From: a virus
IMG/VR virus record: IMGVR_UViG_3300046453_000081
Span: 45,236-109,235 of that record
Direction: 5' to 3' (one strand)
DNA length: 64,000 nucleotides
Position numbers and translations under genes: made by a program. Positions 17,264-64,000 of this stretch are shown in pieces (position 1 is the stretch's first letter; each line of letters opens with the position of its first letter). Below the pieces are notes generated by a model that had not been told where the DNA came from, searched no databases, and was given only the letters and a program-made list of their open reading frames with translations.

Positions 17264-18472
17264 TTATACGAACGTACATTCCTCTTTGTATAATTTCTTA
17301 ATAATTTCTGGATTACAATATTTTTTAACAGGATACCAATTTTCAATATTATATATGGCACATATTTCTAAATAATCTTCTTTTGTTAATACTCCATTTT
17401 TTATTCTTCTACTCGCTTCATAGATTATACCACTTCTAACAATGTTTTTAGCAGTTAGATACGGATAGCCTAGTACTTCATTAATCATTTTGATTTTTCT
17501 ATAAATAACCATTTTATCCACAGGTCTATTTTTCTCGTCAGTCCTAGTAATAGAGGTGCGGATTACGTAATCATTGCTAACTAGGTTCGTAAGTAAACCA
17601 ACCGATTCATCTTGAATATCGCCATTTCTCTTAACGTATTCTTCTTGAATCATTGCTTTTTCTAATAAGTCCATTGTGGACTGAGTTAGCTTAACCTTCC
17701 TCTTACTATTATCTTCGTTGTATACTATAAGAATATTGTTATTGTCTATTGCTTGTCGGACATGTTCTTTCTTGATGTTTCGTATTTCAGATAACGATTC
17801 TCCCTGAATCCCTTCGAACAATAATTTGATAATAACAGCGTCTTGAGGATTTTTGCAGTCCCAATTGATTTTTTCAATTGTTGCTCTTGTGAAGTATAAC
17901 TCTAACTCTTTGTCAACAAATCTTATAAAATAATCCATAGGTAATGTCTTTAATTCATTATTTTTAGCACTTGTCTCGCTATTGTCGATGCACCAATCAA
18001 TGTATGTTGAAATGATTCTTCCATTAACGTGGGAAGCTGATTCTGTTAGTGGCTCTAATTCATACAATACATTTTCCAGTTCAGACAAGGTAAACAGAGA
18101 TAAGTCTTTATTATATTTGTCTTCATACTTCAAACTTTTCTCAAGAATTCTTGCATATGGTGTTTGTGTATTGCTTGGGTATCTGTGAAGGAATTTTAAT
18201 TTAATTTTATTATTGTAGAATGTCTCTAGATTATATTTTTCACTTTTGGTAATTTCAAATACAGAATGAATTAACATGTATTTTACAGATAATTTTAATT
18301 CCTCGACATCTTGGCTCAAAATAATCTTACGTACTTCTCCGCTGAGTAGACCATACTTTTCCATCAATATTTTTAATTCTTTTTCCCCATCAACTCTACT
18401 CCTTATTTCGTCAATTCCACTGATTACTAATGCATTGATTTTTCTTGTTTTATCTCTATCAATTTTTGTCAT
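17264..18472 (-). CDS. Tyrosine-recombinase-fold protein with degenerate catalytic motifs; SPbeta MrpR(YopR)-like repressor candidate
   Basis: LLFEGIQGESLSEIRNIK (catalytic R replaced by Q) and TAKNIVRSG (HxxR degenerate); operator in its own promoter. Confidence 0.65.
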   Translation of the reverse strand: MTKIDRDKTRKINALVISGIDEIRSRVDGEKELKILMEKYGLLSGEVRKIILSQDVEELKLSVKYMLIHSVFEITKSEKYNLETFYNNKIKLKFLHRYPSNTQTPYARILEKSLKYEDKYNKDLSLFTLSELENVLYELEPLTESASHVNGRIISTYIDWCIDNSETSAKNNELKTLPMDYFIRFVDKELELYFTRATIEKINWDCKNPQDAVIIKLLFEGIQGESLSEIRNIKKEHVRQAIDNNNILIVYNEDNSKRKVKLTQSTMDLLEKAMIQEEYVKRNGDIQDESVGLLTNLVSNDYVIRTSITRTDEKNRPVDKMVIYRKIKMINEVLGYPYLTAKNIVRSGIIYEASRRIKNGVLTKEDYLEICAIYNIENWYPVKKYCNPEIIKKLYKEECTFV

Positions 18473-18766
18473 GTTTTTCACTCCTTTGTATTGCACCCTT
18501 TATTGTCTCAATGTTATTTATTTGAGTTTTTATTGTACTAATACTTAATTTAATTATAATTTAATTCACAACATTTTTCAATGTTATTAATTAGGCATTA
18601 AAAGGAGTGGGATATTTTTTTGCATTTCTTATAATACTTAATTGCTAAAGGCAGATGAATAAATCAACTTTTATCTGTTTGATTATATTATAACACATTT
18701 TCGATTCATTAACAATGGATTTTGGTATAAAGTACCATATTTCGATTCTGATAACTCGCTTTGTTT

Positions 18767-26474: not shown

Positions 26475-26751
26475 CTTTTTTCATTATTGGGAACTTCATT
26501 AGCCCATCCTTATTAAGTCCATCATATACAACATCAATATGCATCCCTATTCCCACAACGTCAAAATCGTCATCAATCCAAGAGTCAAATCCAGTAAACA
26601 CATTTTGCTCTTTACCATTAAAATCAACAGTCAGAGTTTGACCATCTCTTTTTCCCACAACTTTTAGCCTAATTTCTTCCACGTCTTTCACCCCTCTAAT
26701 GACTAAACTTCTTTCCATCACTATAGCCTTTTTGCATCGCATCAGAATCAC
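26449..26751 (-). CDS. Hypothetical protein
   Basis: ORF; real start probably near 26691. Confidence 0.5.
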   Translation of the reverse strand: MILMRCKKAIVMERSLVIRGVKDVEEIRLKVVGKRDGQTLTVDFNGKEQNVFTGFDSWIDDDFDVVGIGMHIDVVYDGLNKDGLMKFPIMKKGGVYYEQT

Positions 26752-27367
26752 CGCTTGTTTTCCTTTTTATTCTGCTACCACTACCCATCGTGTAGCCCTC
26801 ATATTCTCGGACTACCAAGGCATCTTTTAGAAGAATAAGTGCCAACCCTTCCGTTTCCACTTGCTCTTTAAACTTGGCTTTTAACCCTTGCAAGTACCCT
26901 GCTATATAGTCGTTTTTAACTGCAATAGTAGTCCCCCTGTTGCCACCAATACCCCTCTTTTTTATGTAGTTGTCCGAATGAAATTTAATCTTAATGAGTG
27001 CAAATTCATAAATCGCCTTACAAACAGCAATATCCTGTTCAAGCCCTAAGAAAGTAATCTTTGTTCTCTTATTGAAAGACCTAGTAAATGTATAGCATCT
27101 AAAATTGTCCGCAATTATTAGTGCTAAACTTTTCATCCACCATTGTAACTTTGTATATTCAGTTCCGTCACCCTCCATTACATTTTTTCTAATTGGTTTA
27201 TTATCATAATCTATATCGTTAATTGAAAGATTGTATTTCATCATCATTTTTTGTGCTAAGAGCATAGCTGTATCCGATTCATCAGAATCAGCCCCATCAT
27301 TTGCTAGTGCAAGGCATCCTTTTATTTTTGTTATAATATCTTCTATGTTTTTGCTTTTATCGTCCAT
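26696..27367 (-). CDS. DUF2786-domain protein
   Basis: KIKGCLALA....ESDTAMLLAQKMMMKYNL N-terminus. Confidence 0.75.
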   Translation of the reverse strand: MDDKSKNIEDIITKIKGCLALANDGADSDESDTAMLLAQKMMMKYNLSINDIDYDNKPIRKNVMEGDGTEYTKLQWWMKSLALIIADNFRCYTFTRSFNKRTKITFLGLEQDIAVCKAIYEFALIKIKFHSDNYIKKRGIGGNRGTTIAVKNDYIAGYLQGLKAKFKEQVETEGLALILLKDALVVREYEGYTMGSGSRIKRKTSGDSDAMQKGYSDGKKFSH

Positions 27368-27407
27368 GTCTTTATTCTCCTATCCATTTAGATTGGGTTA
27401 TCGAAGT

Positions 27408-27470
27408 AGTTTTAAGGCAACAACAGGAAGTCTATTGTTGCCCAACAATCATTTGAAAGGGTTGATTGAA
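27408..27470 (-). ncRNA. Candidate small regulatory RNA antisense to the shared early-gene RBS
   Basis: Own promoter; hairpin CAAUCA-[ACCCUUUCAAA]-UGAUUG followed by GGCAACAAUAG/CUGUUGUUGCC hairpin; no ORF. Confidence 0.6.
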
Positions 27471-27474
27471 TTTC

Positions 27475-27503
27475 ATTGTATCCTATTTTGAGACTATTTT
27501 CAA
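27475..27503 (-). promoter_or_regulatory. sigmaA promoter of the candidate sRNA
   Basis: TTGAAA-17 bp-TACAAT. Confidence 0.7.
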
Positions 27504-38691: not shown

Positions 38692-38841
38692 GATTTACTT
38701 CCTCAATAATTAATCCAATTCAAATGGGTTAATTATTCAAAAAGCAAGGTATTTAATATTAATAATATAAATACCTTGTAAATTTCAGTCATAAAACTGA
38801 AAGGATTGATTGTATTAATATTGTACCACAACTCGACAATT

Positions 38842-39024
38842 TTATACAAGACTTTTAATCTTGGGAACAAGATAATTCTCCAATATTTCTTTTGAAAATT
38901 TGTGTGCCAGTTCCACTTCTCCATCTTTGAGCATATCACCCTCTTTCAACATGAATAGGACAAACTCAACATACCTCATTGAAAACATGACATCTTTGAC
39001 TTCCATAAACTTCTCCTTTAACAT
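38842..39024 (-). CDS. Hypothetical protein
   Basis: ORF. Confidence 0.5.
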   Translation of the reverse strand: MLKEKFMEVKDVMFSMRYVEFVLFMLKEGDMLKDGEVELAHKFSKEILENYLVPKIKSLV

Positions 39025-44139: not shown

Positions 44140-44367
44140 TTAAACGTAATCCAATGGTGTATATAAGCCCTGACTAGCCTTTAAATATTCTTCCTTAGTA
44201 ATCTTATTACAACCATTCATATATTCCCTTGAACCTTCTTGATGTTGCCCAATAGGACAATACATTGTTACTTTTTCATGGGCAGGTAAATCGTCAATTG
44301 CAACATAAACATCATAAGGTGAAGTTTTATCTCCATCAACATCTACAAAATATCCAAGAACCTTCAT
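44140..44367 (-). CDS. Hypothetical protein
   Basis: Y..IGQH motif; own operator-promoter. Confidence 0.6.
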   Translation of the reverse strand: MKVLGYFVDVDGDKTSPYDVYVAIDDLPAHEKVTMYCPIGQHQEGSREYMNGCNKITKEEYLKASQGLYTPLDYV

Positions 44368-44459
44368 TCAAATCAATCCTTTCAATTTTTATGTATTCAC
44401 CCTTACAATCCAATTGTACTGGACTGTAAGGGTGAAAGCAAGCCCTAAATTGCGCTTGC

Positions 44460-48789: not shown

Positions 48790-50829
48790 TTATTTGTAAA
48801 TATTGTTATGGTCATTCATTATATCTGTTAATGCTTCATTCTCTTTGTCAGACATTTGAGAATCTGCTTCGAACTCTGTCATCAATCCCATTTCTGATAT
48901 GAATCGACTTGCCCCTGCTGATTTTCCGTTATATGTTTCAGTACTGGATACAAAACATCTTTGTTCTGCCCTTGTCACTAATACATAGGCTAAACGTCTT
49001 TCCTCTTCAATTGCTTGGGGCTTTTCACCATTTTCTTCCTGTTCTGTAGCCTTTTCAATTGACTTGAAATGGGGTAGTAAGTTTTCTGATAATCCAATAC
49101 CAAACACTGTATCAAATTCTAAGCCTTTTGATTTGTGAATTGTCATCAATTGAACACCATTAATGTTATGCTTTGCTTTACTTGTCATTTCATCAACATA
49201 ATTAAGGAATGTTTCAACATTTTCAAAATGAGATAATAAATATTTTAATGTCTCAATATTTTCCATTCTAGAATCAGATTCTTCATTTTCGTCATCTAAT
49301 AGATAATCTCTATATCCTTTATCTAACAGGTGATTAATAATTCCTGTCATTGATTCACCTCTTGTTAACAGGTTTTTCATACTGTTAACTAGGTTTTTGA
49401 ATTCCATTACACCTTTTTCTTCATAGTTCTTTAATTGTACTTTGCTATTAGCGTCCCATAATGATGTTTTCTTAACTGTTTTTAATTTTTCGATATAAGC
49501 TTTGCCTAAAAATCTTGATGGGACATTGATAACTCTTTCAAACGCCTTGTTATTGTCTTTGTCGTGAACTAATTGTAAATAAGAAATAATGTCCTTAACT
49601 TCTTTCCTGTCATAGAAACTTACTCCACCATATAGAACATATGGAATACCCTGACAGATTAAAGCATTTTCAATAGCCAATGATTGTTTGTTTGTCCTGA
49701 ATAGGACAGCAATTTTTTTGTATTCCTTATTTTCTTTCTCATGTAAAATGTTAATTTCTTCAGCTACAAATTGTGATTCATCCATTTCATCAATAAAATG
49801 ATGATATGTTATTGCTTTGTCATCTGAAACAATAAAAGGAATCATCTGATTATCAATTCGATTGACATTATTTTTTATCAACTTGTTTGCACATTCTAAG
49901 ATGTGCGACTTACTTCTATAATTTATTACAAGACTAATCTCTTTAACATTTTTATAAGTTTTTGTAAAATTGATAAATTGGTCAGGTTCAGCGCCCCTGA
50001 ACGAATACATAGATTGCGAATCGTCCCCCACGACAAAAACATTGTATTCAGGATATCCAAGAAGCTTAATTAATTCATATTGCATCAAATTATTGTCTTG
50101 TGCTTCATCTACTAAAAGATACTTAAATTGTTTTTGATATTTTTTAAGAACAACTTCATTTTCTTTTAGTAATTTAACGAATAATACTAACATATCGTCC
50201 ATGTCTAAACGTTTTTGCACTTGTTTTTGATATTCGTATTCTCTGAAGAATTCATAATAGGCTAAATTTCTGTCTGTAGGGGCAGTGTTTCTCAAAAACA
50301 TGTCATCATCAAACCCTTTGTTTTTGTAGAATCCTACCACTGACAACAACCCTGTTAATCCAATCTTTTCTAATTCGTCTTTAACTTCTTTGTCAATTGT
50401 TCTATCTTTCATTAATGATTTTCTAATTTCTCCACCAAACTTCTTTTGCTCATAATTGATAAGTAGTGCATTGCTAAATCCTCTATACATTGGATGATTC
50501 ATGTTCTTATATTCTTCACGTAAAATTCTATATCCAATGGAATGACTAGTACCAATTGTTATATCGTTTAATGTACTAGCAGGGATTAACTTTGACAATC
50601 TTTCTTTCATTTCTTCGCTTGCTTTTTTGGTGAATGTTGTCATCAAAATTTCTCTTGGTTTAATTCCACTTTCAATCATAAAAGCTACACGATTTACCAA
50701 TACTCTAGTTTTTCCTGACCCTGCACAGGCATTAATTCGTGTAGTTCCTTTAATTGTTGTTACTGCTAATTTCTGATTCTCATTCAATCCTTTTAATAAT
50801 GGGTTTTCAACTTCATTTCTGTTAATCAT
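48790..50829 (-). CDS. pcrA: UvrD/PcrA-like SF1A DNA helicase
   Basis: ACAGSGKT, LVDEAQD, VGDDSQSMYSFRGA, NYRS, MTIHKSKGLEF, EERRLAYVLVTRA. Confidence 0.92.
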   Translation of the reverse strand: MINRNEVENPLLKGLNENQKLAVTTIKGTTRINACAGSGKTRVLVNRVAFMIESGIKPREILMTTFTKKASEEMKERLSKLIPASTLNDITIGTSHSIGYRILREEYKNMNHPMYRGFSNALLINYEQKKFGGEIRKSLMKDRTIDKEVKDELEKIGLTGLLSVVGFYKNKGFDDDMFLRNTAPTDRNLAYYEFFREYEYQKQVQKRLDMDDMLVLFVKLLKENEVVLKKYQKQFKYLLVDEAQDNNLMQYELIKLLGYPEYNVFVVGDDSQSMYSFRGAEPDQFINFTKTYKNVKEISLVINYRSKSHILECANKLIKNNVNRIDNQMIPFIVSDDKAITYHHFIDEMDESQFVAEEINILHEKENKEYKKIAVLFRTNKQSLAIENALICQGIPYVLYGGVSFYDRKEVKDIISYLQLVHDKDNNKAFERVINVPSRFLGKAYIEKLKTVKKTSLWDANSKVQLKNYEEKGVMEFKNLVNSMKNLLTRGESMTGIINHLLDKGYRDYLLDDENEESDSRMENIETLKYLLSHFENVETFLNYVDEMTSKAKHNINGVQLMTIHKSKGLEFDTVFGIGLSENLLPHFKSIEKATEQEENGEKPQAIEEERRLAYVLVTRAEQRCFVSSTETYNGKSAGASRFISEMGLMTEFEADSQMSDKENEALTDIMNDHNNIYK

Positions 50830-51273: not shown

Positions 51274-51381
51274 GTCAATCAACCCTCTCATTTTTTTAAT
51301 TTAAAACAAAGTAATAGGAAACAATTGTTATATTGTTTCCCTTGTCTTTGTAGTAAATTTAATTGTTTTGATACATACTCT

Positions 51382-51579
51382 CTAACAATCTTTTCCTGAC
51401 AATTCTAATGTGTCATCAGTAAAGAAATAATATTTCCCATCATTTTCATTGGACAATAAGCACGAATAACCATATTTAAAAATAACTACAATAGTAAATT
51501 CTTTACCTCTGTTTGAACCCAATGTACAAATCACCTTTTGACCAATTTTAAATTTTGTATTCAATTCTATCTTATTCAA
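51382..51579 (-). CDS. Array gene, small SH3/KOW-like protein
   Basis: KFKIGQKV...GKEFTIV pattern. Confidence 0.55.
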   Translation of the reverse strand: MNKIELNTKFKIGQKVICTLGSNRGKEFTIVVIFKYGYSCLLSNENDGKYYFFTDDTLELSGKDC

Positions 51580-51668
51580 ACAAATCAACCCTTTCATTTT
51601 TTTAAAACAAAGTAATGGGAATAGATTGTTATAGAGAATCTATTCCCCCTGTCTTTATTTTAAATCTG

Positions 51669-51923
51669 TTAAGGCAACAAGGCTACACTTTCACCTGTTT
51701 GAATAAAATAGGCACGTTGTAAGAATGCTAAAACATGGTCATGTTTTCCTTCCATGTATTCTTTTGCGCTTTTTTCTTCCCATTTGGTATAATCTTCAAG
51801 ATTATTCACATAAAACTTACCGTTTTTCGCTTCTTCAATACATGCCATTGCATTATCAGAAAACCATTTTCTAGTTTTTTGAATTGATTCTTCTGTTAAT
51901 TCGACTCCATTAAATTTTAGCAT
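51669..51923 (-). CDS. Array gene, hypothetical
   Basis: ORF with RBS. Confidence 0.6.
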   Translation of the reverse strand: MLKFNGVELTEESIQKTRKWFSDNAMACIEEAKNGKFYVNNLEDYTKWEEKSAKEYMEGKHDHVLAFLQRAYFIQTGESVALLP

Positions 51924-51986
51924 ATTTATCAACATTCCTTTCTTAACAAAATGCATTTTAACGTTTTGACAATTAATGTGTTATCT

Positions 51987-52142
51987 TCAATGATTTTGCA
52001 AATAAATATTGTATTCATGTTGTTTAGATTCAATGTAATCTTTTGCGTCTTCTCCATATTCTAAGCTAACAACTCTTAATTGTTCTTCAGTTAAAGAGCA
52101 TTCTTGAGATAACCATTGGCTAAAAGTTAAAACTTTAATCAT
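51987..52142 (-). CDS. Array gene, 51 aa (below ORF-track cutoff)
   Basis: ATG after shared RBS; MIKVLTFSQW... Confidence 0.55.
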   Translation of the reverse strand: MIKVLTFSQWLSQECSLTEEQLRVVSLEYGEDAKDYIESKQHEYNIYLQNH

Positions 52143-52233
52143 TTATAAATCAACCCTCTCAATTTTTATTTAAAACAAAGTAAGGGGAATAGGATTCTGT
52201 TATTGACTATTCCCCATGTCTTCATTTTAAAAA

Positions 52234-52485
52234 CTAATTTCTTTGTTCTATAGTAGAAACATGTTGTAAAACATATTCAGCGCAAATGTCTTCACCTCTT
52301 TGATAATCATAACTATTGTTATGACTTCCTACACAGATACAATCATTTCCATTATCAAAAATTTCAATCTTGTAATTATTGGGAAGGATTATCCAAAACG
52401 TATCCTCTCTACATTTTTGTAAAGGATATCCATGATTAAAAAGAGTATTGAAAACTGTTTGCATTACAGGACTATAATTTTTCAT
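52234..52485 (-). CDS. Array gene, hypothetical
   Basis: ATG after shared RBS. Confidence 0.6.
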   Translation of the reverse strand: MKNYSPVMQTVFNTLFNHGYPLQKCREDTFWIILPNNYKIEIFDNGNDCICVGSHNNSYDYQRGEDICAEYVLQHVSTIEQRN

Positions 52486-52614
52486 ATTAAAATCAACCCT
52501 TTCAAATTTAATTGGTACAATCTAATATTTTAGATTGTCCTTTCAATATTCTCTATTCAATTCTAATACAGAGAATACTCAAAGGACAGCTAAAAGCCTG
52601 TCCTATCTGTTATA

Positions 52615-52740
52615 TTAAATGAAGAATGGAACGAAAAATAATGATAAAAATATTAATGCTCCAATAATTACAAATCCATAAAATTCATCTTTATCCTTGT
52701 TATAGAAATTAGATAATACTTGATAGACATCTTGCAACAT
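52615..52740 (-). CDS. Array gene, 41-aa membrane peptide
   Basis: GGGGGA RBS; hydrophobic C-terminus. Confidence 0.45.
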   Translation of the reverse strand: MLQDVYQVLSNFYNKDKDEFYGFVIIGALIFLSLFFVPFFI

Positions 52741-52769
52741 GATTATTTCCCCCTGATTATATTTATTAT

Positions 52770-53186
52770 TTAAGCGTATTGTAAACTTTTCTTATAACCT
52801 TTAAATGAGTTAATTTCAAGATTGTTAATTTCACTAATTGTTTTTGTTAGATTCTTGAACAGACTGTCAACTCTATAATGTTTTTTGTACGATTTAAAAA
52901 AATCACCTTGTTTAGTTCTTAACCAAACAATTACTCTTAATGCATCTGCCCCTATATCCCTTGTTCTATCTGTCCTAATGTCCAATGATGAATAGATGAC
53001 AATACACTTGTTCGATTGATTGGTCTTTATCTTGTAAATTCTTTCCTTGGTGTTAAAACCTTTGTTAATCAGGGGCTTTGTTATGTCCTGAATACTGTTA
53101 ATAGACAGCCCTAAACCTGTTACAATAGCCTGTAATTCTGTTTCAAATTCCTGTTTGGTGAAAACACAAAAATTTTGCTTTGCCAT
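52770..53186 (-). CDS. Array gene, basic hypothetical protein
   Basis: YSSLD....RDIGADALRV motif. Confidence 0.65.
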   Translation of the reverse strand: MAKQNFCVFTKQEFETELQAIVTGLGLSINSIQDITKPLINKGFNTKERIYKIKTNQSNKCIVIYSSLDIRTDRTRDIGADALRVIVWLRTKQGDFFKSYKKHYRVDSLFKNLTKTISEINNLEINSFKGYKKSLQYA

Positions 53187-53271
53187 GTTAATCAACCCTT
53201 TCAAATTTGTTTATTTTAAAACCAATAAAAGAGACAACATTTTTCTGTTATCTCTTTTTTTGTTTTAAAAA

Positions 53272-53631
53272 TTATCGAATAATTCCACAATCGGTAACAT
53301 ATCCTTTAAAATTTTGTCCAAGGGCAATAAAGGATATTTCATGTACTCTTTTATATTCTGCCTTTCTTGTTTTCCCTTTTCCTATCCTTTCATTAGTTTC
53401 AGTTAATGACAGATTTTCAACCATATGAGAATCAATTTCTAATAGTCTTGTAATGGAAAAATGTATCTTTGTTTCAAGCGTTTTCCATTTACCTGTTTCG
53501 TCAATACAGTTATCATATGATGACTTACTCATTGCACGATATTCTGAATCAATATCAAAATGGAAAACATTTACACCATCTTTAAAGCCTGTTATATTGT
53601 CCTCTCTTAATTCAACTTGAAACATATTCAT
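53272..53631 (-). CDS. Array gene, hypothetical
   Basis: ATG after shared RBS. Confidence 0.6.
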   Translation of the reverse strand: MNMFQVELREDNITGFKDGVNVFHFDIDSEYRAMSKSSYDNCIDETGKWKTLETKIHFSITRLLEIDSHMVENLSLTETNERIGKGKTRKAEYKRVHEISFIALGQNFKGYVTDCGIIR

Positions 53632-53754
53632 TTCAATCAACCCTTTCAATTTTGGTACAAATCTAAAAAATATTTATTTCAGATTGTCCAATCAATTAAC
53701 AAGTCTGTTATATTGTTAACTGATTGGACAGCCTAAAAAATGGCTGTCATACTT

Positions 53755-54000
53755 TTATCTTTCAATGACAAATAATAACCCTTCATAATTGTCTTTTTCA
53801 AAATAGGCAGATATTTTGTCACCTGTCTCCAAATCTTGAATACTGTTTTCATCTGTAAAAAAGACACCTTCACCATTAACACTATTCACTGCATAATATT
53901 CTTGGTGATTTTCTACTACTTGAACATTGGTAACAGTGTAATCAAATTTTTCTGACTGAATACCTAATAAAAATAAAAACAACATCACAACATCAAACAT
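53755..54000 (-). CDS. Array gene, small exported or membrane protein
   Basis: Hydrophobic N-terminus. Confidence 0.55.
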   Translation of the reverse strand: MFDVVMLFLFLLGIQSEKFDYTVTNVQVVENHQEYYAVNSVNGEGVFFTDENSIQDLETGDKISAYFEKDNYEGLLFVIER

Positions 54001-54106
54001 CTAAAATCAACCCTCTCAAATTTGGTACGTTTTGAACGTCCTTTACATTTACACTGTTATAGCCCTTGTAAACATAAAGGACAGCCAAAAATCAGGCTGT
54101 CTGTTA

Positions 54107-54430
54107 TTAGAAACAATGTTTAATAATTAAGTCTTTAATCGTTCTCATTTCGCTTGTATAGTCCTGTCCTGCAATATAGCTTGCATTCCCTTTATGATTG
54201 ATAATCAATCTACTAAAAATACCATAACTTTTTGGTAAATTATCAATCTGTATATTGCATATTGCAATATACGGTTTACAACCTTTTCTAGATTCTGACA
54301 ATAAAAATTGTTTGAATTTCCATAGCATTTCCTGTCTTTCTTCGATAGGAGTATCAATCCATTCAAATTTGACATCATCATAATGTTTTCCACTGATTAA
54401 ATTTTCAAAGTTATACTGTTTGCAATTCAC
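54107..54430 (-). CDS. Array gene, hypothetical
   Basis: YIAGQDY motif; GTG after shared RBS. Confidence 0.6.
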   Translation of the reverse strand: MNCKQYNFENLISGKHYDDVKFEWIDTPIEERQEMLWKFKQFLLSESRKGCKPYIAICNIQIDNLPKSYGIFSRLIINHKGNASYIAGQDYTSEMRTIKDLIIKHCF

Positions 54431-54554
54431 ATAAATCAACCCTCTCAAATTTTTAGAACAATTTAAACTAGTGTTTAGATTGTCTTTTCAATTACTATTA
54501 TTGTTATGTTAGTAATTGAAAAGACAGCCTAAAATCTGACTGCCTTTGAAAAAA

Positions 54555-54869
54555 TTATAGACCCCAAATATAGATATATTCATTATCTGTTACATTTTTA
54601 AAACCTTGTTTTTCCCAAAATTCAATGGCTTCAAATAACGAATAAATAATAATTGGTCTGTTATCTTGTTTTAAATTATTAATGAATTCCGTACCATGTC
54701 CTTTCCCTCTATGATTTTCTTTGACAAATAAGTCTTCTAGCAATATAGCATCATGAACATTGTTTAAGTCTGTTAAGTCATATTCATCAAGTTTATACTT
54801 TGTTGTAAATTGTTTTAACTTGAATGGCTTAATAGATACCTTAGAAAAGATATGATTAAAATTTGTCAT
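54555..54869 (-). CDS. Array gene, GNAT acetyltransferase
   Basis: LFVKENHRGKGHGT; AIEFWEKQGF. Confidence 0.8.
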   Translation of the reverse strand: MTNFNHIFSKVSIKPFKLKQFTTKYKLDEYDLTDLNNVHDAILLEDLFVKENHRGKGHGTEFINNLKQDNRPIIIYSLFEAIEFWEKQGFKNVTDNEYIYIWGL

Positions 54870-54916
54870 AATTCACCTCTCTACACTGATTCAATAAAAA
54901 TCAGGCTGTCTGTTAT

Positions 54917-55243
54917 TTACCATTCTCTGCCCTGTATTAACATTTTTCGTTCCCATGCTATTAAATCATAATATTCACGTCTATCTTGATTGTCATTTTC
55001 AGGATAGATTTGTAATGCAATACTTGTAACCATGCTTTCATCTACATGTTTGGGCAAAGTCATTACTGTTTTGTTATTTTCCTCTATTCGGAAATAACAA
55101 TAGTAATCTGATTCACCATGTTCATTGCATTGATACCATTGCCTGTTAATCACTATTTTGATGTTGTTTTCGTTGATATCCTCATATTCATAGCGAATAT
55201 CAGGCATTTCAAATCCATAATCTTTCTGTTCATCTTGATACAT
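54917..55243 (-). CDS. Array gene, hypothetical
   Basis: ATG after shared RBS. Confidence 0.6.
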   Translation of the reverse strand: MYQDEQKDYGFEMPDIRYEYEDINENNIKIVINRQWYQCNEHGESDYYCYFRIEENNKTVMTLPKHVDESMVTSIALQIYPENDNQDRREYYDLIAWERKMLIQGREW

Positions 55244-55465
55244 ACTAAATCAACCCTTTCAAATTTGGTTTGGTACAATCTAGAATCAGATTGTCCTTTT
55301 TACTAATAACATGGTGCTAACTGTTATAATCGTTATTAGTAAAAAGGACAGTCCAAAAAATATGGGCTGTCTGTTATTGTTCATTCATTTTGTTTTCAAT
55401 CTTTTTATAGTACATAAGTAAATAATCAATTGCGGTTTGATTCTCTGCAATTATTTGTATGCTGT

Positions 55466-55663
55466 CTATAGGGGTTTTTTCAAATGCATACCATTGTAAT
55501 GGTTTTTTAAGGGTCTTAATTTTTCACATGATGTTATTTCCCCCGTCATTAGATTACAAACTGCAAATTTTTGTCCATCTCTTAACCAAGATGGAAGAAC
55601 AAATTTTCCTGTCTTTTCATTAAATTCAATTTCCATTCTTTGTGCAATGTTAACCTTTTCCAT
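55466..55663 (-). CDS. Array gene, hypothetical
   Basis: ATG after shared RBS. Confidence 0.55.
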   Translation of the reverse strand: MEKVNIAQRMEIEFNEKTGKFVLPSWLRDGQKFAVCNLMTGEITSCEKLRPLKNHYNGMHLKKPL

Positions 55664-55775
55664 ATCAATCAACCCTTTCAAATTCGATTTGGTACAATCA
55701 AATCATTTGGCTGTCCTTTCAATCAGTCATTAGTGACAGATTCAAAGGACAGCCAAAAAGAAGGCTGTCTGTCTG

Positions 55776-55949
55776 TTATTCAGAATAAACAAGTTCATTG
55801 TATTGTTTTTCCGCTGTCTGTCTGTCTGACCCAAAATGAAAATTCATATTCTTTCTTTCAAAGTAAATAGTATAGCCCTCACTGTCTTTAATCAGTCTGA
55901 CATCAAATCCAAATTCGTCCTGACCCTGTTTTAATACGACAAAATCCAT
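55776..55949 (-). CDS. Array gene, 57 aa, paralogue of the N-terminal part of 57633-58013
   Basis: MDFVVLKQGQDEFG..SDRQTAEKQYNELV vs LSILKEGQDNKG..SDSKKADSMYNSLV. Confidence 0.55.
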   Translation of the reverse strand: MDFVVLKQGQDEFGFDVRLIKDSEGYTIYFERKNMNFHFGSDRQTAEKQYNELVYSE

Positions 55950-56175
55950 CTTTTAACGTCCCCCTTTATATTCTTTAAAACATGCAAAACAGATTGATTT
56001 TAGACCCTGTTTTACTTTTAATTGCTTACAAGATGGACAGATGAAATATTTTTTAACCTTTTTCATTTAATCAACCCTTTCAATTTTGGTACATAGCTTT
56101 GTATGTCCTTTATGTTTATACTGTTATTCCGCTATAAACATAAAGGACAGCCAAATAAATAAGCTGTCAATAGTG

Positions 56176-56346
56176 TTAATCATAAAATTTTTCAAAGATG
56201 ATATATTTTTCAAAGTGGGCTACATTCCCTATGTCTGTTATGTCATAGCCCTTTTCTTTCATTCTGTTTACAGTATTAGCCCATTTTTCAGTGTTTTCTT
56301 CTTCCTTAAAATAGATATACTGAATTTTTTCATGAAATTTTTTCAT
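56176..56346 (-). CDS. Array gene, hypothetical
   Basis: ATG after shared RBS. Confidence 0.55.
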   Translation of the reverse strand: MKKFHEKIQYIYFKEEENTEKWANTVNRMKEKGYDITDIGNVAHFEKYIIFEKFYD

Positions 56347-56439
56347 TTCAATCAACCCTTTCAAATTTTTAAAATCAATAAAAGGAATAACATTATTGTC
56401 ATATTATTAATGACTGTTATTCCCTATCAGATATTAAAA

Positions 56440-56739
56440 TTATCTAGTCAGTGTTTTTAGCTGTCTATCCCATGTCTTTAATTTTCTTTCAAGTTTCTTG
56501 ATTATTTCAGGGTTTTCAGCCTTTTTTAATTCGTCTTGAATTTCTTCAATTGTTTGTTTGGTTACAATTATTTTCATATCTTTTTCAATTCTTAGCCTTT
56601 GTTCGACTATCAAATCAACTGTATGTCTAGTTTTGCCATATTCTAGATATGGTGTATTCATCATAATTTTGACTGCTTTTTGTAAGTCATCACAGGCTAT
56701 ACTCATTTTTTCTAACCGTTCTTTAACTGTTAATTCCAC
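56440..56739 (-). CDS. Array gene, coiled-coil protein
   Basis: GTG after shared RBS. Confidence 0.6.
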   Translation of the reverse strand: MELTVKERLEKMSIACDDLQKAVKIMMNTPYLEYGKTRHTVDLIVEQRLRIEKDMKIIVTKQTIEEIQDELKKAENPEIIKKLERKLKTWDRQLKTLTR

Positions 56740-56868
56740 TACAAATCAACCCTTTCAAATTTGGTGATACAATCAAGATTTTCAGTTTTGATTGTCCTTT
56801 TCACTAATACTGTAGTGTTATCTGTTATTAGCAAAAAGGACAGCCAAACAAAAATGGCTGTCTGTTAT

Positions 56869-57237
56869 CTATTCGATGACAATTTTAAAATAAGAATTAT
56901 CATTATAGACAACATAGTAATTATTTTTATTCACTGTTATTTTTTTGATACTATCCGCTGAAAATTGTTCAGATGGGTATTTTTCATCATTTAATACTAC
57001 ATAAATAGTATTATTTTCACAAAAAACCTCTGTTATTATTCCCCTTGCTATACATGTTTGTTTTCCTGATAATAATTCTTGAATATTTTCTACATTCCAC
57101 CCATTGTGAATCGAATACTTTTTACCTTTTCTTTCAATTAATTGGTGATAGAATTCACTTTTTGATAGCTCTTTTCCAATAATTTCATTGACCTTGTTAT
57201 CTCTGTCTTTGATAAATTTTTCAGTATACTTATTCAC
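56869..57237 (-). CDS. Array gene, hypothetical
   Basis: GTG after shared RBS. Confidence 0.6.
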   Translation of the reverse strand: MNKYTEKFIKDRDNKVNEIIGKELSKSEFYHQLIERKGKKYSIHNGWNVENIQELLSGKQTCIARGIITEVFCENNTIYVVLNDEKYPSEQFSADSIKKITVNKNNYYVVYNDNSYFKIVIE

Positions 57238-57364
57238 ACAAATCAACCCTTTCAATTTTTTTGTTTGGTACAATCTAGAATCAGATTGTCCATTCAATTA
57301 ACACTATTGTTATACTGTTATGTTGTTAATTGAATGGACAGCCTAATATCAGGCTGTCATACTG

Positions 57365-57517
57365 TTATTTTTTTGTTTTATTGACACCAAATAATCTAGT
57401 ACTGCCACAATCTTTGCATTGCCATTCTTCACATATTTCTGTTTTTATTACAATTTCATGCTTTTTTAAGTCATTACATTTTTTACAAAATACACTAACA
57501 TCATCATTTTTTAACAT
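57365..57517 (-). CDS. Array gene, 50-aa Zn ribbon
   Basis: FCKKC...WQCKDCG; ATG after shared RBS. Confidence 0.55.
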   Translation of the reverse strand: MLKNDDVSVFCKKCNDLKKHEIVIKTEICEEWQCKDCGSTRLFGVNKTKK

Positions 57518-57632
57518 TCCAAATCAACCCTTTCAAATTATTAGAACAATCGTTATTAGATTGTCTTTCAAGTATACACTTTTGTTATAGTATAAACTTG
57601 AAAGACAGCCTAAAATCAGGCTGTCAGGTTGT

Positions 57633-58013
57633 TTATTTTAATTCTACATTAAACAACGCTTCGATAGTGTTTAATATTGTATCACTATATCCAATGATAC
57701 CTTCATACCTAAGATACATGTCAAACAATTCTTTGTTGTCGTATTTTCTCATTATCTTTTCGTCTTGACTGTTGTCATTTTCGTCAATGTCTAACATCTC
57801 TCTGACCCTACTCATAATTGTGAAGGGGATAACCCTGTCAGATACTAGACTGTTATACATAGAATCTGCCTTTTTAGAGTCTGAATAATTATGATAACTA
57901 ATGCTAGTTTTACTTTCAATTTTTATGACATATTGCCCTATGTTGCCTTTTGCTAGTTGGACAATATTTCCTTTATTGTCCTGACCCTCTTTTAAAATAG
58001 ATAAGTTTTCCAT
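57633..58013 (-). CDS. Array gene, hypothetical
   Basis: YLRYEGIIGY motif. Confidence 0.6.
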   Translation of the reverse strand: MENLSILKEGQDNKGNIVQLAKGNIGQYVIKIESKTSISYHNYSDSKKADSMYNSLVSDRVIPFTIMSRVREMLDIDENDNSQDEKIMRKYDNKELFDMYLRYEGIIGYSDTILNTIEALFNVELK

Positions 58014-58120
58014 ATTACAAATCAACCCTTTCAAATTTGGTACGCTTTGAACGTCCTTTTTGTTTATAACTATCTAACTGTTATAAACAAAAAGGACAGC
58101 CAAATAATAAAGGCTGTCTG

Positions 58121-58381
58121 TTATAGGTATTTATTATCATACCAATGATTAAACAATTTTTTCATTGTATAAAATCTGTCTGATAGTTCTTTTAATTTTT
58201 CGTCCTTGAAATATAAAGACAAATCCCAAATTTCAATGTCTAGATTATCAATTGAAATTATTACATCTAATTGTAAATTTTCATCAAATGATAGAAATTC
58301 TTCCTTTGATATTTTTTCAATCAAAGAAAATTTTTTAATCAATTTTTCACTAGAAATTTGTACATAATTTTGCATATCCAT
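58121..58381 (-). CDS. Array gene, hypothetical
   Basis: ATG after shared RBS. Confidence 0.6.
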   Translation of the reverse strand: MDMQNYVQISSEKLIKKFSLIEKISKEEFLSFDENLQLDVIISIDNLDIEIWDLSLYFKDEKLKELSDRFYTMKKLFNHWYDNKYL

Positions 58382-58477
58382 TATAAATCAACCCTCTCAA
58401 ATTTGTTTTTAAAGCTAATGAAATGGATAACACTATTATCATACTGTTATAGTGTTATCCATTTTTTAGGCTTAAAA

Positions 58478-58813
58478 TTAAGCTGTCACTAGAATTATTT
58501 CACCCTGTGATAATTTAAAATATTGTTGGTTGTTATGTCCCAATAAATCTAACATGGTGTTAAGACTATCCCTATCACTGTTAGAATACCCATAATAATA
58601 GACAATCTCATTATCATTGTATTCAAGTGTTAACGTCCCATAATGAAACAATCTTGTTACAAGACATTTCGGGTCGGGGTATATTTCTTGCTCAATTCTA
58701 TATACTTCATTTCCCTGTCTTTTTAAGGACATACTAACAAAATCATCTGTTTTTTCAAATGCTTTGTTTAAAAGATTCTCGATAATTTTTACACTTTTTC
58801 CATATCTTGCCAT
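58478..58813 (-). CDS. Array gene, hypothetical
   Basis: LFHYGT..YGYSNSDRDSLN motif. Confidence 0.6.
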   Translation of the reverse strand: MARYGKSVKIIENLLNKAFEKTDDFVSMSLKRQGNEVYRIEQEIYPDPKCLVTRLFHYGTLTLEYNDNEIVYYYGYSNSDRDSLNTMLDLLGHNNQQYFKLSQGEIILVTA

Positions 58814-58938
58814 AACTAAAATCAACCCTTTCAAATTTGGTATAATCTAGGATAAAAATAATCTTTGATTGTCCTTTCATTTTCCACCATAGGCAGAAAA
58901 TCAAAGGACAGCCAAATAAATGGCTGTCTGTTATAGGG

Positions 58939-59130
58939 TTATTTCTCAATATATAATACCCTGTTAAATTTTTCTGACAAATGACACTTAATTCCCTTTT
59001 CAAGCAATACATCATATACTTTTTGTAATTCCTCTCTATTGCCTAAAATCTGATAATTTTTGGAAAATTCGTCAATAGATAACCATTTGCTTATAGTCTT
59101 AACTAGTTTTGATAAATCTTTCTTTGCCAT
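58939..59130 (-). CDS. Array gene, hypothetical
   Basis: ATG after shared RBS. Confidence 0.55.
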   Translation of the reverse strand: MAKKDLSKLVKTISKWLSIDEFSKNYQILGNREELQKVYDVLLEKGIKCHLSEKFNRVLYIEK

Positions 59131-59213
59131 AATAAAATCAACCCTCTCAAATTTGTTTTTAAAGCTAATGAAAAGGATAACAACCTTGTTATGTTGTTAT
59201 CCTCTTTTTAATT

Positions 59214-59390
59214 TTAAAATCCATCAAAATAGATAACCGCTATTATTTCCCTTGTAGCCTTTAATTCGATGCCTATTTTATTTCCATTGTTGTATAGGTT
59301 AACTTTATGGGCTGTCAATCCATTACCCCTCAAAATAGCCCTCAGTTCTTTTTGTTTTTTTATTGATAGTTCTTTCATTTTTATTAACAT
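59214..59390 (-). CDS. Array gene, 58 aa
   Basis: ATG after shared RBS. Confidence 0.5.
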   Translation of the reverse strand: MLIKMKELSIKKQKELRAILRGNGLTAHKVNLYNNGNKIGIELKATREIIAVIYFDGF

Positions 59391-59486
59391 CTAAAATCAA
59401 CCCTTTCAAATTTTTTTAAAGCCAATGAAGGAAATAACTCTATTTTCATAGTGTTAACTGTTATTTCCTTTTTTGCTTTAAAACTA

Positions 59487-59966
59487 TCAACCTGTTATTT
59501 TAACCTTTGATTTTTTGTTTGCTGTCTGTATTGTTTCTTTTCCGTATTTGTTAACCTTGTAATCGTAACTAGTAGCCTTTTTTCGTTTGGTTGTAAGATT
59601 TTCTGTCCAATACCATTTTTTATTTGACCCTGACCACTTAAAGCCAAGGCTTTTTAGAGTCTCTTTTATGGAATAAGTTTCACCATATACCCAAATCCAA
59701 GACCCTATAATGTCAATTGTTATAGCGTCAAATTTTACAATGTTATTAACAACGTCACGATAGTTAAAGCTGTCTGTATGTCCTTCTTTGTCTGTCTTAA
59801 CGTCTTTCAATTGTGCAAAAAGATTGTCATACTCATTATTGATATCTTGCATAATTTTGGTAGTATCTTTATCTCTGTTTAAATCAGGGTGAAATTGTTT
59901 TGCAAGCGTCTTGTATGCCTTTTTCAATTCTTCCATAGTGGTAACGTTTTTAAAGTATTTATACAT
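59487..59966 (-). CDS. Array gene, DnaJ J-domain protein
   Basis: ELKKAYKTLAKQFHPDLN...MQDINNEY (HPD motif). Confidence 0.8.
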   Translation of the reverse strand: MYKYFKNVTTMEELKKAYKTLAKQFHPDLNRDKDTTKIMQDINNEYDNLFAQLKDVKTDKEGHTDSFNYRDVVNNIVKFDAITIDIIGSWIWVYGETYSIKETLKSLGFKWSGSNKKWYWTENLTTKRKKATSYDYKVNKYGKETIQTANKKSKVKITG

Positions 59967-60045
59967 CTAAAATCAACCCTTTCAAATTTTTTAAAGCTAA
60001 TGAAAAGGTTAACACTGCTGTTATAGTGTTAACCCCTTTTTAGTC

Positions 60046-60438
60046 TTAAAATTGGTTTATGTTACGTCTAACTAGTGTTAATTGGTCAGGCTTGTTAAAG
60101 TGGTCTTTTCTGTCAAAAACTTTTTTGGCTTGTTTGTCTGAAAATCCTACCTTGGTTAAAATCTCGTATGACCCCCTAGAACCTTCACCATGATATCCAA
60201 ACGAACAACCATAAAAAATAACTGTCTGTCCTGTTATAGTGAATAGTTTCAAACGATACCAATTCTTTGAATCATATTGCAATATAGCCCTTTTTACAGG
60301 TGACATATATTTTTCAATATGCTTAAAAAATTCTAATGACTGTTTAGTAATGCCATTAGCATATAGATTATAATTTTTGTCTTTGATGTGTGTTACCCCT
60401 CTTTGAATATCTCTTTTTAAAATTGTTTGCCCCAACAT
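60046..60438 (-). CDS. Array gene, hypothetical
   Basis: GCSFGYHGEGSRG motif. Confidence 0.6.
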   Translation of the reverse strand: MLGQTILKRDIQRGVTHIKDKNYNLYANGITKQSLEFFKHIEKYMSPVKRAILQYDSKNWYRLKLFTITGQTVIFYGCSFGYHGEGSRGSYEILTKVGFSDKQAKKVFDRKDHFNKPDQLTLVRRNINQF

Positions 60439-60538
60439 AAAATCAACCCTTTCAAATTTGTTTTAAAGCTAATGAAGGAAATAACATTTTACCTATGTTG
60501 TTAAGGTTGTTATTTCCTTTTTTGCTTTAAACTGTCTG

Positions 60539-60811
60539 TTAGCTTTTTGTTTTAAATTTTAATTCAGCGTTTTCACTGTCAGATGAATAATAACCATTGG
60601 AAAAGCTATTGAATTCGCTGTTATATGTCCAAACTACATAGGGCTGATATGCTTCTTGTTTATAGCAAAGCGCTACAAATAAATATTCGTCTAATGGGTT
60701 ATTTGTCAAATATCTAAAATCTAACAATTCGAAGCCCATGTTTTTGGCTGTCATTGTAGCCTTTTCTTTCATTTCTAAACGGTTTTCCAATCTTGTATAA
60801 ATTTCTACCAT
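60539..60811 (-). CDS. Array gene, paralogue of 27509-27739
   Basis: YVVWTYNSEFNSFSNGYY. Confidence 0.6.
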   Translation of the reverse strand: MVEIYTRLENRLEMKEKATMTAKNMGFELLDFRYLTNNPLDEYLFVALCYKQEAYQPYVVWTYNSEFNSFSNGYYSSDSENAELKFKTKS

Positions 60812-60934
60812 GTTAAATCAACCCTTTCAATTTTGGTACGCTTTGAACGTCCTTTTCATCATTATCATAGTGATTATATTTATCACCTGTTAATAACAAA
60901 AAGGACAGCCAAATGATAAAGGCTGTCTGTTATC

Positions 60935-61222
60935 TTACTTTTCCTTTTTTTGGTGGATATCCACCATGTTTTCATATGTTGTTATAACCAAATTATTGAT
61001 ATCTCTTATAAATTGTCTTCTTTGTTGATACAAAGGTGAACGAATGTCATTAATCTGACTGACATGTTCAATTAATTCCTTTGACATCTTTTCCATTTTT
61101 TCATGTTGTTCAATAGCAGGCTTGTAACTTTTTTCCGTTTCCATTAATACTATTGCATCATTGGAAATTTCTGTTAATACCTCAATAATTTTTTCATCTG
61201 ATAAACCTGTAAACCATGCCAT
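60935..61222 (-). CDS. Array gene, hypothetical
   Basis: ATG after shared RBS. Confidence 0.6.
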   Translation of the reverse strand: MAWFTGLSDEKIIEVLTEISNDAIVLMETEKSYKPAIEQHEKMEKMSKELIEHVSQINDIRSPLYQQRRQFIRDINNLVITTYENMVDIHQKKEK

Positions 61223-61320
61223 TACAATCAACCCTTTCAAATTTGTTTTTAAAGCTAATGAAAAGGATAACAACCTTGTTGTTATCCACTTTTTAGTTTT
61301 AAAACTGTTTTTACTGTCTG

Positions 61321-61539: not shown

Positions 61540-62278
61540 AGTGTTAACACCCTTTCAATTTTGTTTTTATTATACCTCAAAAACCCTGTTATCAAGGTTT
61601 TTGAGGTATCACAAAAAGGCTTGATATTGTTATTTCCTGTCCTTTGCATCATTGACCCTATAAGGGTTAACTAGTCGCTTAAAGCGTCACAATAGAGACA
61701 AGACAATATCAAGCCCCTTGCATCTAATAACACTATTTTCATAGTGTTAAAATAGATACCCTTTTTTGAAAGGGGTTGATAAGGTGGATATAGCATACGA
61801 CTGTTACCTGTCAGGTTATTCAGGGCTATATCAGACCCCCCAATTATTTTCACCCTGAAAATCAATTCAAGGTATTCGTCCGAGTCGGAAAATATTGGGT
61901 AATAAGCGATAACCCCCTTATAAGTAGGGTAATGACTTCTTTTTAGAATTCGTGTCGCTGTCATTATGTGCGACGCTCTTACATGATATCAGCCCTATCA
62001 AGTGGGCAACAACCTAGCACCCTGACCCCCTGAATTGATTGGGGGCAGTCCTAAGGGCAAAGCCCCTAAGGGGTAACGCTATTCGGTTTGGGTGGCTAGG
62101 GCTTTAGCGTAGGACATGGGGGGTATATTGTGTCAAACATACCAAAAAATGGATTTGTCGAATACCTCAAAAAAAGGCTTTAAATCAACTTTACACTATT
62201 TCCACAGTGTTTATGTTAGTTCCTTCCAATCCGACTCGTAACACTTTCAAAAATACACAAAAAGTGTAATTTTACACA

Positions 62279-63438
62279 TCGTTCGTGTTTTGCTTATTTT
62301 TTGCTCAATTTCAAAATAATCGTTCGTGTTTTGCTGTCGTTTTTTTGGAGGTTTTCACTATATGTGCATTGTAAACAGTCATTTTTGTTCACAAGTCTGT
62401 CACAATTAGATGTTTTGTCGAATTTTGCGAAATGAAAAATCAATGATACCAAGGGTTGAAAGGCTATAAAATTTATTTTAAGATGTTTTCGACAAAATTT
62501 GTCGAATGCCATAAAATATACCCTATACCCCTATGGGCAGTATGCTTATTAAACAATATGAACATAGTGAAAAGTTGATTTGTAGGGCTAAAATAGCTCT
62601 TTTTAATTGTTCGTGTTTTGCTAATATCCTAAAATATGGGAAAAGATTGTGAATTATTCGGTTTGGGTCAGGTCAATTTTCAAGGCATAAAAAGGGCTGT
62701 CAGGCTTGATGTATCAGGCTTTTCAAGGCTTTTCAGGGGGTCATATTAACCCTTTTATTTCTATAGGGTGTAAAAAAGGGTCAGGCTGTCCGATATGGGC
62801 TATAAAGGGCTGTCATGGGCTGTCTGTCCGTTTTGCCACTATCCATAGGCTGTCAGGCTGTCAGGGGGCTATAAGGGGCTATAAAGGGCTGTCTGTCTGT
62901 AAGGGGCTAATATAGGGGCTGTCTATAGGCTGTCTGTCTGTCAGGGGTCAGGCTGTCTTGCATGGGCTAATATAGGGGCTTTTCAGGGTCAGGGGGTCAG
63001 TCTGACCCTACCCCAAGTAAGTTTACACTATGTTGATAGTATTATATAGTAGTTTGTGAATTATTCACATAAAGCCCCACAATTGCCCTGTATTGGATTG
63101 ATATATAGGGGGGTCAGTTTACTATTCGGACGAAAATAACGCCTTATTGATACTAATTATTATTTCCCTAATATCTCCTAATAATTGGGAATAATTCAGG
63201 AAATAATGTATATCTATACAAGTCTATACAATCGGAGTTAACAACATGCATATAGTGAGAAGTTGATATATCAAGGTTAAATAGGGCTAATAGTAGGTTA
63301 CTGTATACGTTAGGGGGTATATGTAGATATGCATTGTATGATGTCTGACCCTTTATTCCCCTTGCAACGGTGCGGGGTGTATCGTTCGTGTTTAGGCTGA
63401 TATTGTATGTATATATATATTATTGTTCGTGTTTTGCT
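62279..63438 (+). repeat. Dispersed direct repeat GTTCGTGTTT(TGCT), 5 copies
   Basis: Near 62281, 62322, 62608, 63384, 63425. Confidence 0.7.
62690..63000 (+). repeat. Degenerate GGGCT/GGCTGTC tandem repeat tract
   Basis: Many GGCTGTC, GGGGCT and CAGG units. Confidence 0.75.
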
Positions 63439-63594
63439 TATCATGTTAGATATCATTATCAGTTAGATAGTTTTAAATGAGAATCATAGGGAAATACGGG
63501 TTAATACTATGGGTAATGAATGTATATAGGGTTAATACTATGTGTGTAGTAGTAATGATGTGAGATGATATAACATAGGTATGTAAGATACGCT

Positions 63595-63840
63595 AACATC
63601 ATAGAAAAGTATATAACATTATATGATGATATATAACTATGTATATATTAGTATAATGATATATGATGATATGATACTTTATATGATGTATGCAAGATGA
63701 TATATAATGTAGTATGATGATATATGATGTATTATAACTATGTATGATAACGTATAACAATATATGATAACGTATAATGATATATGATAATAGAGTACCA
63801 TATATAACCATGTATGATATATTATAATGACATATGATGA
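63595..63840 (+). repeat. Low-complexity (TATATGAT)-like repeat tract
   Basis: Repeated ATATGATGA/ATATAA units. Confidence 0.75.
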
Positions 63841-64000
63841 CAGGGTAACACTTCACTGTCAGACAGTATGTTATATAAACGACACGAATATAGTATTAAC
63901 TATCTGCCCTGTCTTGTATACCCTACCCCCTATTTATGGGATATTCTGCCATGCATACCCTGGGGGGTGGGGGCGTGGGGGGGGGGGGGGGGTGGGGTGG

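Follow-up and report, generated by a model that had tools for sequence, protein, structure and literature searches.

Two short loci of an uncultured large phage carry, directly behind predicted promoters, the mirror image of the ribosome-binding sequence that the phage places before its early genes. We give about an even chance to the view that these loci specify trans-acting anti-RBS RNAs, which would repress or destabilise the early-gene messages and so be functionally like the c4 RNA of phages P1 and P7. A fuller version of this view is more tentative and has less of our confidence. It holds that a large Gram-positive phage may tag ~30 early genes with a private RBS of 17-19 nt that would be read by its own family of anti-RBS RNAs, one member of which would change from a leader into a short RNA when a repressor forms a roadblock immediately past the second hairpin.

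The window analysed is the last 64 kb (64,000 nt) of a 109,235-bp IMG/VR virus record, which is estimated to be 60% complete. The GC content is ~31% and the host is a low-GC Gram-positive bacterium. Nearly all long open reading frames of the whole 109-kb contig lie on the minus strand, and the contig is transcribed on the minus strand throughout. Pfam matches were obtained for an MrpR-like protein, a UvrD helicase (48790-50829), a GmrSD_N protein, a Ser/Thr kinase, an AAA_24 ATPase and a LAGLIDADG endonuclease. Even the nearest cultured phages are only remotely similar. Their counterparts of the MrpR-like protein, in Tsamsa-like Bacillus siphoviruses and Alicyclobacillus phage KKP_3916, share 34-39% identity with it, and the DUF2786 protein encoded next to the first locus reaches at most 38% identity to any homologue in cultured phages; homologues at 55-65% identity are present in the protein collection. 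Searches of viral, metagenome and genome contigs and of cultured phages revealed no close relative. The DUF2786 protein and a 15-sequence profile, when searched against viral, metagenome and genome contigs, returned only distant loci at 31-44% identity with unrelated leaders. The helicase adjacent to the early genes had no match among viral contigs, and blastn of the first locus against cultured phages returned nothing. Exact patterns (the hairpin, a 16-mer of the tag, the "-10 plus seed", and a 20-mer of the tag in metagenomes) gave single chance-level matches, none of them with an array.

The early genes that carry the sequence most faithfully form an array of 24 unrelated small genes on the minus strand (51277-61242), in which the intergenic region before each gene contains structured hairpins of two types, followed by the invariant tag (A)AATTTGARAGGGTTGATT. 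A search for the tag 17-mer ATTTGARAGGGTTGATT with at most two mismatches gave 26 matches, against 0.13 expected from shuffles. The minus (coding) strand holds 25 of them, 24 within 51277-61242 and one at 44371-44387; the other, an exact match, is on the plus strand. This count bears out the earlier note, which had described a near-invariant RBS block before 24 array genes. At every array copy the tag ends 2-7 nt from the start codon, each time before a different protein. The array proteins are 37-159 aa in length and include no paralogues, and several match different PHROGs of unknown function. Since these proteins are unrelated, the identity of the tag is not a by-product of gene duplication. 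The invariant block runs from position -2 to +16; conservation is total between -1 and +16 except at three positions, and falls off sharply at +17; this 3' edge of conservation is also the edge of complementarity.

Several features of the array and its surroundings are worth recording in their own right. The array gene at 59487-59966 (minus strand) has a J-domain-like N-terminal motif (KKAYKTLAKQFHPD). The sole match of the array in blastn against cultured phages is a segment of 56 nt in Staphylococcus phage records, one of them annotated TreP. The 111-aa array gene at 58478-58813 (minus strand; phrog_3276) carries this match, at ~81% identity to two Staphylococcus phage records. In Stab22 a repeat_region and a TreP gene annotation cover it, a hint that the array may be equivalent to terminal-repeat early genes. 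Upstream of the array, AAACACGAACRAT occurs in five copies of one orientation (62290-63434, minus strand), within the non-coding stretches 61965-62293 and 62513-63598. Also in this region are ten copies of GACAGCC (62701-62957) and repeats of the TATCATA type (63676-63819), and a C-rich run (~63960-64000) closes the contig. The repeat region may represent a genome terminus, an origin or a partition-like region, or be in part an artefact of assembly. Another repeat, the 14-mer GTGATAAATAWAAT, has 11 copies, all on the transcribed strand and none on the other. They lie at 60886, 36228, 16809, 16132, 10610 and 2675 of the window, with five further copies in the first 45 kb of the contig. Several stand at a -10-like position, sometimes after TTGACA, and GTGATAAATAWAAT may mark a second promoter class, middle or late.

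The tag described in the earlier note is confirmed for the array, but it is not peculiar to it: diverged forms (GAAAGGGTTGAT and GAAAGGATTGAT) are the standard RBS of the first genes behind many operator-controlled promoters at 28-49 kb. Late and replication genes have ordinary GGAG/GAGG sites as their RBS, so only early genes are marked by the tag. The operator in question, AAYCCA-N7-TGGRTT, is found in 22 copies with at most one mismatch between 19.5 and 48.3 kb, against 0.8 expected, and most copies overlap a -35 or -10 hexamer at their centre. A candidate repressor of this regulon is the MrpR-like protein of the tyrosine-recombinase fold (17264-18496, minus strand), which matches PF22822 (2e-24) and PF22823 (6e-20). 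In SPbeta, MrpR is a repressor of the same fold that acts on a repeated operator, SPBRE, in many early promoters, and its binding to the operator was addressed by EMSA or ChAP-seq (PMC10516654). The present phage is like SPbeta in encoding a protein with the Pfam MrpR_N and MrpR_C domains together with a repeated operator. The two differ in operator sequence and copy number, and here the MrpR-like protein is the putative operator-binding repressor. The link of this regulon to the putative RNAs is positional only, in that an operator lies downstream of the first locus.

Within the tag, AGGRTT is similar to the operator half-site TGGRTT down to the same R degeneracy, and at two array sites (55689 and 55270) the sequence passes as an operator with two mismatches. 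The tag may have a common origin with the operator-promoter cassette. The resemblance also speaks for another explanation, in which the shared sequence is an orientation-free site in double-stranded DNA for a phage protein, be it the MrpR-like repressor or another one. We regard such a DNA site as improbable. The mirror loci hold the half-site only, the other arm not matching, and conservation extends over 17-19 nt, far more than 6. Moreover, the array block is always in one orientation and at a fixed Shine-Dalgarno-to-start distance, which is what an RNA-level signal would show. The tag was considered as a promoter as well; this was rejected, as its TTGAAA has no consistent -10 downstream.

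Since the whole contig is transcribed on the minus strand, the inverted copy of the tag reads as antisense to it. This copy (AAUCAACCCUUUCAAAU/AATCAACCCTTTCAAAT; 27451-27467, minus strand; locus 1) is the exact complement of the array tag and lies at or next to the predicted 5' end of a transcript. One such inverted 17-mer is present, against 7.5e-6 expected by chance per strand from composition. The consensus is matched exactly by 17 array copies, of which 13 are perfect Watson-Crick complements of the minus-strand 17-mer and four contain one G.U wobble. Locus 1 occupies the 141-nt gap that precedes a gene for a 223-aa protein with DUF2786 and DUF7168 (26696-27367, minus strand). The promoter upstream (27475-27503, minus strand) is of the sigmaA type, with TTGAAA (27503-27498) and TACAAT (27480-27475) separated by 17 nt, and the anti-tag 17-mer begins 8 nt after the -10 (7 nt between). 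The promoter has no intact operator; its flanks, AATCAC..TAGTCT, have the look of a decayed one (7/12 positions).

In the minimum-energy fold (-24.2 kcal/mol, z = -3.1) the transcript forms two hairpins. Hairpin 1 (27446-27468, minus strand) has a 6-bp stem, CAAUCA/UGAUUG (27468-27463/27451-27446), and an 11-nt loop, ACCCUUUCAAA. Hairpin 2 (27415-27443, minus strand) has a 12-pair stem and a 5-nt loop, followed by the tail UUAAAACUACUU. The operator AACCCAatctaaaTGGATA, AACCCA-N7-TGGATA (27381-27399), lies 15 nt past hairpin 2, has one mismatch to the consensus and abuts the GGAG of the DUF2786 gene. It is the only one of the 22 operators that does not have a -35 or -10 hexamer in its centre. 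The earlier note had proposed each of these elements, namely an exact inverted copy of the tag, a sigmaA promoter, a hairpin exposing the anti-Shine-Dalgarno sequence in its loop followed by a second hairpin, and an operator downstream of the promoter rather than over it, and all of them were recovered, the inverted copy as the single plus-strand match. Its further claim of a discrete sRNA of ~60 nt is less secure. The stem of hairpin 2 is strong, but its tail is a poor U-tract that the terminator scan did not call, and hairpin 2 would be at best a weak intrinsic terminator. Because of this poor U-tract a discrete 60-nt RNA from locus 1 (RNA-1) is uncertain, and RNA-1 may be mainly the 5' leader of the DUF2786 message.

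A second mirror copy, unreported by the earlier note, is present at 38811-38799 (minus strand; AATCAATCCTTTC/AAUCAAUCCUUUC; locus 2) and was found by a search of the transcribed strand. On that strand of the 109-kb contig, AATCAAYCCTTTC has only two exact matches, those at loci 1 and 2, against 0.0015 expected. Locus 2 is flanked by a 54-aa gene (39006-38842) on one side and by the next operator-promoter on the other. Its promoter, as read from the sequence, consists of TTGTAT, a spacer of 18 nt and the extended -10 TGgTACAAT (38820-38849, minus strand), and overlaps the stop codon of the 54-aa gene. The second anti-tag, like the first, begins 8 nt after TACAAT. In the predicted RNA (RNA-2) the first 11 nt (ACAAUCAAUCC) are unpaired. 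They are followed by the hairpin UUUCAGUU/GACUGAAA and then by a terminator-like stem (38778-38745) with GCUUUUUG; the whole (38738-38802, minus strand) folds at -19.4 kcal/mol (z = -5.7). The promoter and terminator scans made no call at locus 2, which they missed because the -35 is weak and the terminator stem is GC-poor. No credible open reading frame was found in the unit of either locus. Both anti-tag promoters stand without the repressor operator, which covers ~20 other promoters.

Loci 1 and 2 share the -10 and the seed, and differ in the spacer and the downstream sequence; the preservation of these two elements while spacers and flanks differ suggests selection on the -10 and the seed. 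The probability of a TACAAT ending 6-9 nt upstream of a given site is 0.0037 for each locus and 1.3e-5 for both. A single change separates the two seeds, C at locus 1 to U at locus 2, and it mirrors the GGG/GGA (G/A) difference among the RBS variants. The second copy thereby fits the GGATTGATT variant found at other phage genes.

Then, could the mirror copies be passive remnants of recombination? The array is a cassette system whose repeated boundaries could recombine, and short inverted boundary fragments, made of the tag and a little flanking sequence and left near promoters, would at most supply a 5'-terminal stem-loop that stabilises the message, with nothing done in trans. Alignments of the loci to reverse-complemented array elements pass slightly beyond the tag, over 20-27 nt at locus 1 and, with gaps, over ~55 nt at locus 2, and the exact identity could mean a recent event. 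Hairpin 1 begins at the predicted +1, and the +1 of the transcript is the typical position of 5' stabilisers in Firmicutes. We nevertheless consider such scars unlikely, while giving them serious weight. Both fragments would need to have landed 8 nt after a TACAAT on the transcribed strand (joint P ~1e-5), a stabilising hairpin needs no 17/17 match, and at locus 2 the seed is unpaired and a terminator follows.

The plus-strand copies might alternatively be true RBSs, given that a plus-strand TTG, inside ATTGTA, lies 8-9 nt after the tag at both loci and opens tiny reading frames of 13 and 24 codons. We attach very little probability to these frames. Transcription of the whole contig is on the minus strand, the 8-9 nt spacing exceeds that of every array gene (2-7 nt), and the peptides are short and unremarkable with no plus-strand promoter evident.

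A third, imperfect mirror copy with one extra C (AUCAACCCCUUUCAAA/ATCAACCCCTTTCAAA; 61780-61765) is located upstream of the array, behind a weak CTGACA-16-TATATC, in an element spanning 61707-61780 (minus strand). It pairs in cis with the tag-like AAGGGGCUUGAUA/AAGGGGCTTGATA (61719-61707) around a hairpin of the array's long-bulged type, with a fold energy of -30.8 kcal/mol (z = -5.2). This modelled fold shows that anti-tag and tag can pair and that such sequences can serve in cis. Its role might be that of a 5' stabiliser, or it might lock translation at the array leader.

The long stem of the third copy raises a cis explanation for the other two, in which an anti-RBS in a leader folds onto an RBS of the same transcript and tunes its translation, the RBS being that of the DUF2786 gene or, in read-through, that of the upstream 76-aa gene. 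The position of locus 1 in a 5' UTR without a convincing terminator agrees with it. Still, we find this explanation hard to favour and rate it as improbable. The RBS of the DUF2786 gene (AUAGGAGAAU) lacks complementarity to the 17-mer, no such pairing appears in the leader's minimum-energy fold, and locus 2 is separated from the next gene by its terminator and by that gene's own operator-promoter. As far as sequence evidence goes, each of the rival explanations has against it the double -10 coincidence, the 17-nt identity and the terminator of locus 2. Against trans action it counts that the loci resemble inverted cassette-boundary fragments and that the third copy pairs in cis, features which allow a passive origin or a cis role.

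The reading in which the mirror copies act in trans was pursued through the predicted pairing with targets. The earlier note had suggested a genome-wide target ranking, and in a sliding duplex scan of RNA-1 along the contig the array RBSs indeed come out on top, at -21 to -29 kcal/mol as compared with a genome mean of -7.6 (SD 3.2); one non-RBS site, 42664, intrudes. When the costs of unfolding are included, RNA-1 reaches net cofold energies of -12 to -23 kcal/mol at the 24 array sites; 30 control gene starts average -5.2 kcal/mol, with a best value of -11.8 kcal/mol. RNA-2 is weaker at most sites, with its best net energies at 53651 (-15.2 kcal/mol) and 44387 (-13.4 kcal/mol). The latter site is the RBS AATTGAAAGGATTGATT (44371-44387, minus strand) of a 75-aa gene (44140-44367), to which RNA-2 can form 19 consecutive pairs, one of them G.U. 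Separate target sets for RNA-1 and RNA-2 were considered and rejected, for the energies overlap except at the 44387 site, where only RNA-2 scores well. The sequences, positions, folds and pairing energies are established. The proposal of the earlier note that the target genes are regulated by antisense in trans is partly supported: a second, independently located mirror copy has a promoter and a terminator of its own, and the net pairing energies clearly surpass those of the controls.

How would such RNAs work? The phage would make two paralogous anti-RBS RNAs, each with AAUCAAYCCUUUC starting within 1-2 bases of the predicted 5' end, the mirror image of the private ribosome-binding tag GAAAGGRUUGAUU. 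RNA-1 would start at ~27468 and either end past hairpin 2 as a short RNA or continue as the 5' leader of the DUF2786 message, and could form duplexes of 17-20 bp across the Shine-Dalgarno regions of all 24 array genes and several further early genes. RNA-2 would run from ~38813 to 38738, about 75 nt, and end at its terminator; its best fit would be to the GGAUUGAUU variant, with G.U wobbles against the rest. Pairing would keep the 30S subunit from binding and probably make the duplex a substrate of RNase III, so that the operator-less early array would be shut off at the level of translation late in infection, or kept silent in a lysogen. From its geometry alone, the operator 15 nt past hairpin 2 might add a further step, in which the MrpR-like repressor, once present, would stall RNA polymerase and a short RNA-1 would be released. 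We infer that the loci are transcribed, where the RNAs begin and end, that they pair in vivo and in which direction the effect goes, and likewise the roadblock. A promoter directly upstream, as looked for in a stand-alone sRNA gene, is present at both loci, with a -35 TTGAAA at 17 nt for locus 1 and an extended TGn for locus 2. For RNA-2 the unpaired 5' seed and the stem plus U-tract also count in its favour.

Comparison with known systems gives a mixed picture. Silencing by phage-encoded antisense RNA of the same kind as that by c4 is known for P22 sar and for the P4 CI RNA. The c4 RNA of P1/P7 (immI) is a phage RNA that is not encoded opposite its target and whose exposed bases pair with the phage's own ribosome-binding region, resulting in silencing (PMC12197685). 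The present loci are similar in that exposed bases are complementary to the phage's own RBSs (17/17), the seed being exposed in a loop or as an unpaired 5' end. The c4 RNA targets one operon (icd-ant) through two short sites downstream of it and is processed from the same transcript. Here a single tag is common to ~30 sites on unrelated genes, which belong to other units and lie 10-34 kb upstream with respect to the direction of transcription; two paralogous RNAs are predicted, and the host is Gram-positive. The Rfam C4 covariance model was unmatched here. More generally, no Rfam family matched in the window at the gathering score, and nothing relevant appeared in either locus at E values up to 10.

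In RoxS/RsaE and other C-rich-loop sRNAs of Firmicutes, an unpaired, pyrimidine-rich CCCUUUC pairs with Shine-Dalgarno sequences. A pyrimidine-rich unpaired motif facing a Shine-Dalgarno sequence is found here as well. However, RoxS/RsaE are chromosomal, conserved and matched by Rfam, and direct short CCCC seeds at many different RBSs; here 17-20 nt face a cloned tag. The hallmark of RsaE is several CCCC motifs, in contrast with a single CCC or UCC here. The comparison with RoxS/RsaE drawn by the earlier note therefore holds as an analogy only, since no Rfam family matches.

T4 offers a parallel at the protein level, RegA being a translational repressor and RegB a nuclease that cuts GGAG in early RBSs. 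The shut-off proposed here would likewise be post-transcriptional and reach many early messages through their RBSs. It would differ in that the reader is an RNA instead of a protein and in that the recognised sequence is long and invariant.

In Alicyclobacillus phage KKP_3916, four direct CTCCTGCAT(CTA) repeats follow a TATAAT upstream of the DUF2786 gene (local 2800-2930), and a second cluster of three CTCCTGCAT repeats is found ~10 kb away near the MrpR-like gene. All seven share one orientation, which suggests that they are probably protein-binding. This syntenic leader was examined as an analogue of locus 1 and rejected, its four repeats being in one orientation and never an RBS. That it holds direct repeats, with no anti-RBS seen, was counted against the trans model.

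If the trans model is true, unrelated early genes without operators would be shut off or silenced together through a common RBS tag read by RNA, and the invariant RBS context across genes that have no sequence relationship would be explained. The arrangement would do with RNA what T4 RegA/RegB do with protein, or would extend the principle of P1 c4 immunity genome-wide, and the tag/anti-tag pair would constitute a compact orthogonal translational switch. A 2025 review of phage sRNAs describes no such Gram-positive case (PMC12197685). A one-to-many RNA layer would be added to the temporal control or immunity of phages of Gram-positive hosts.
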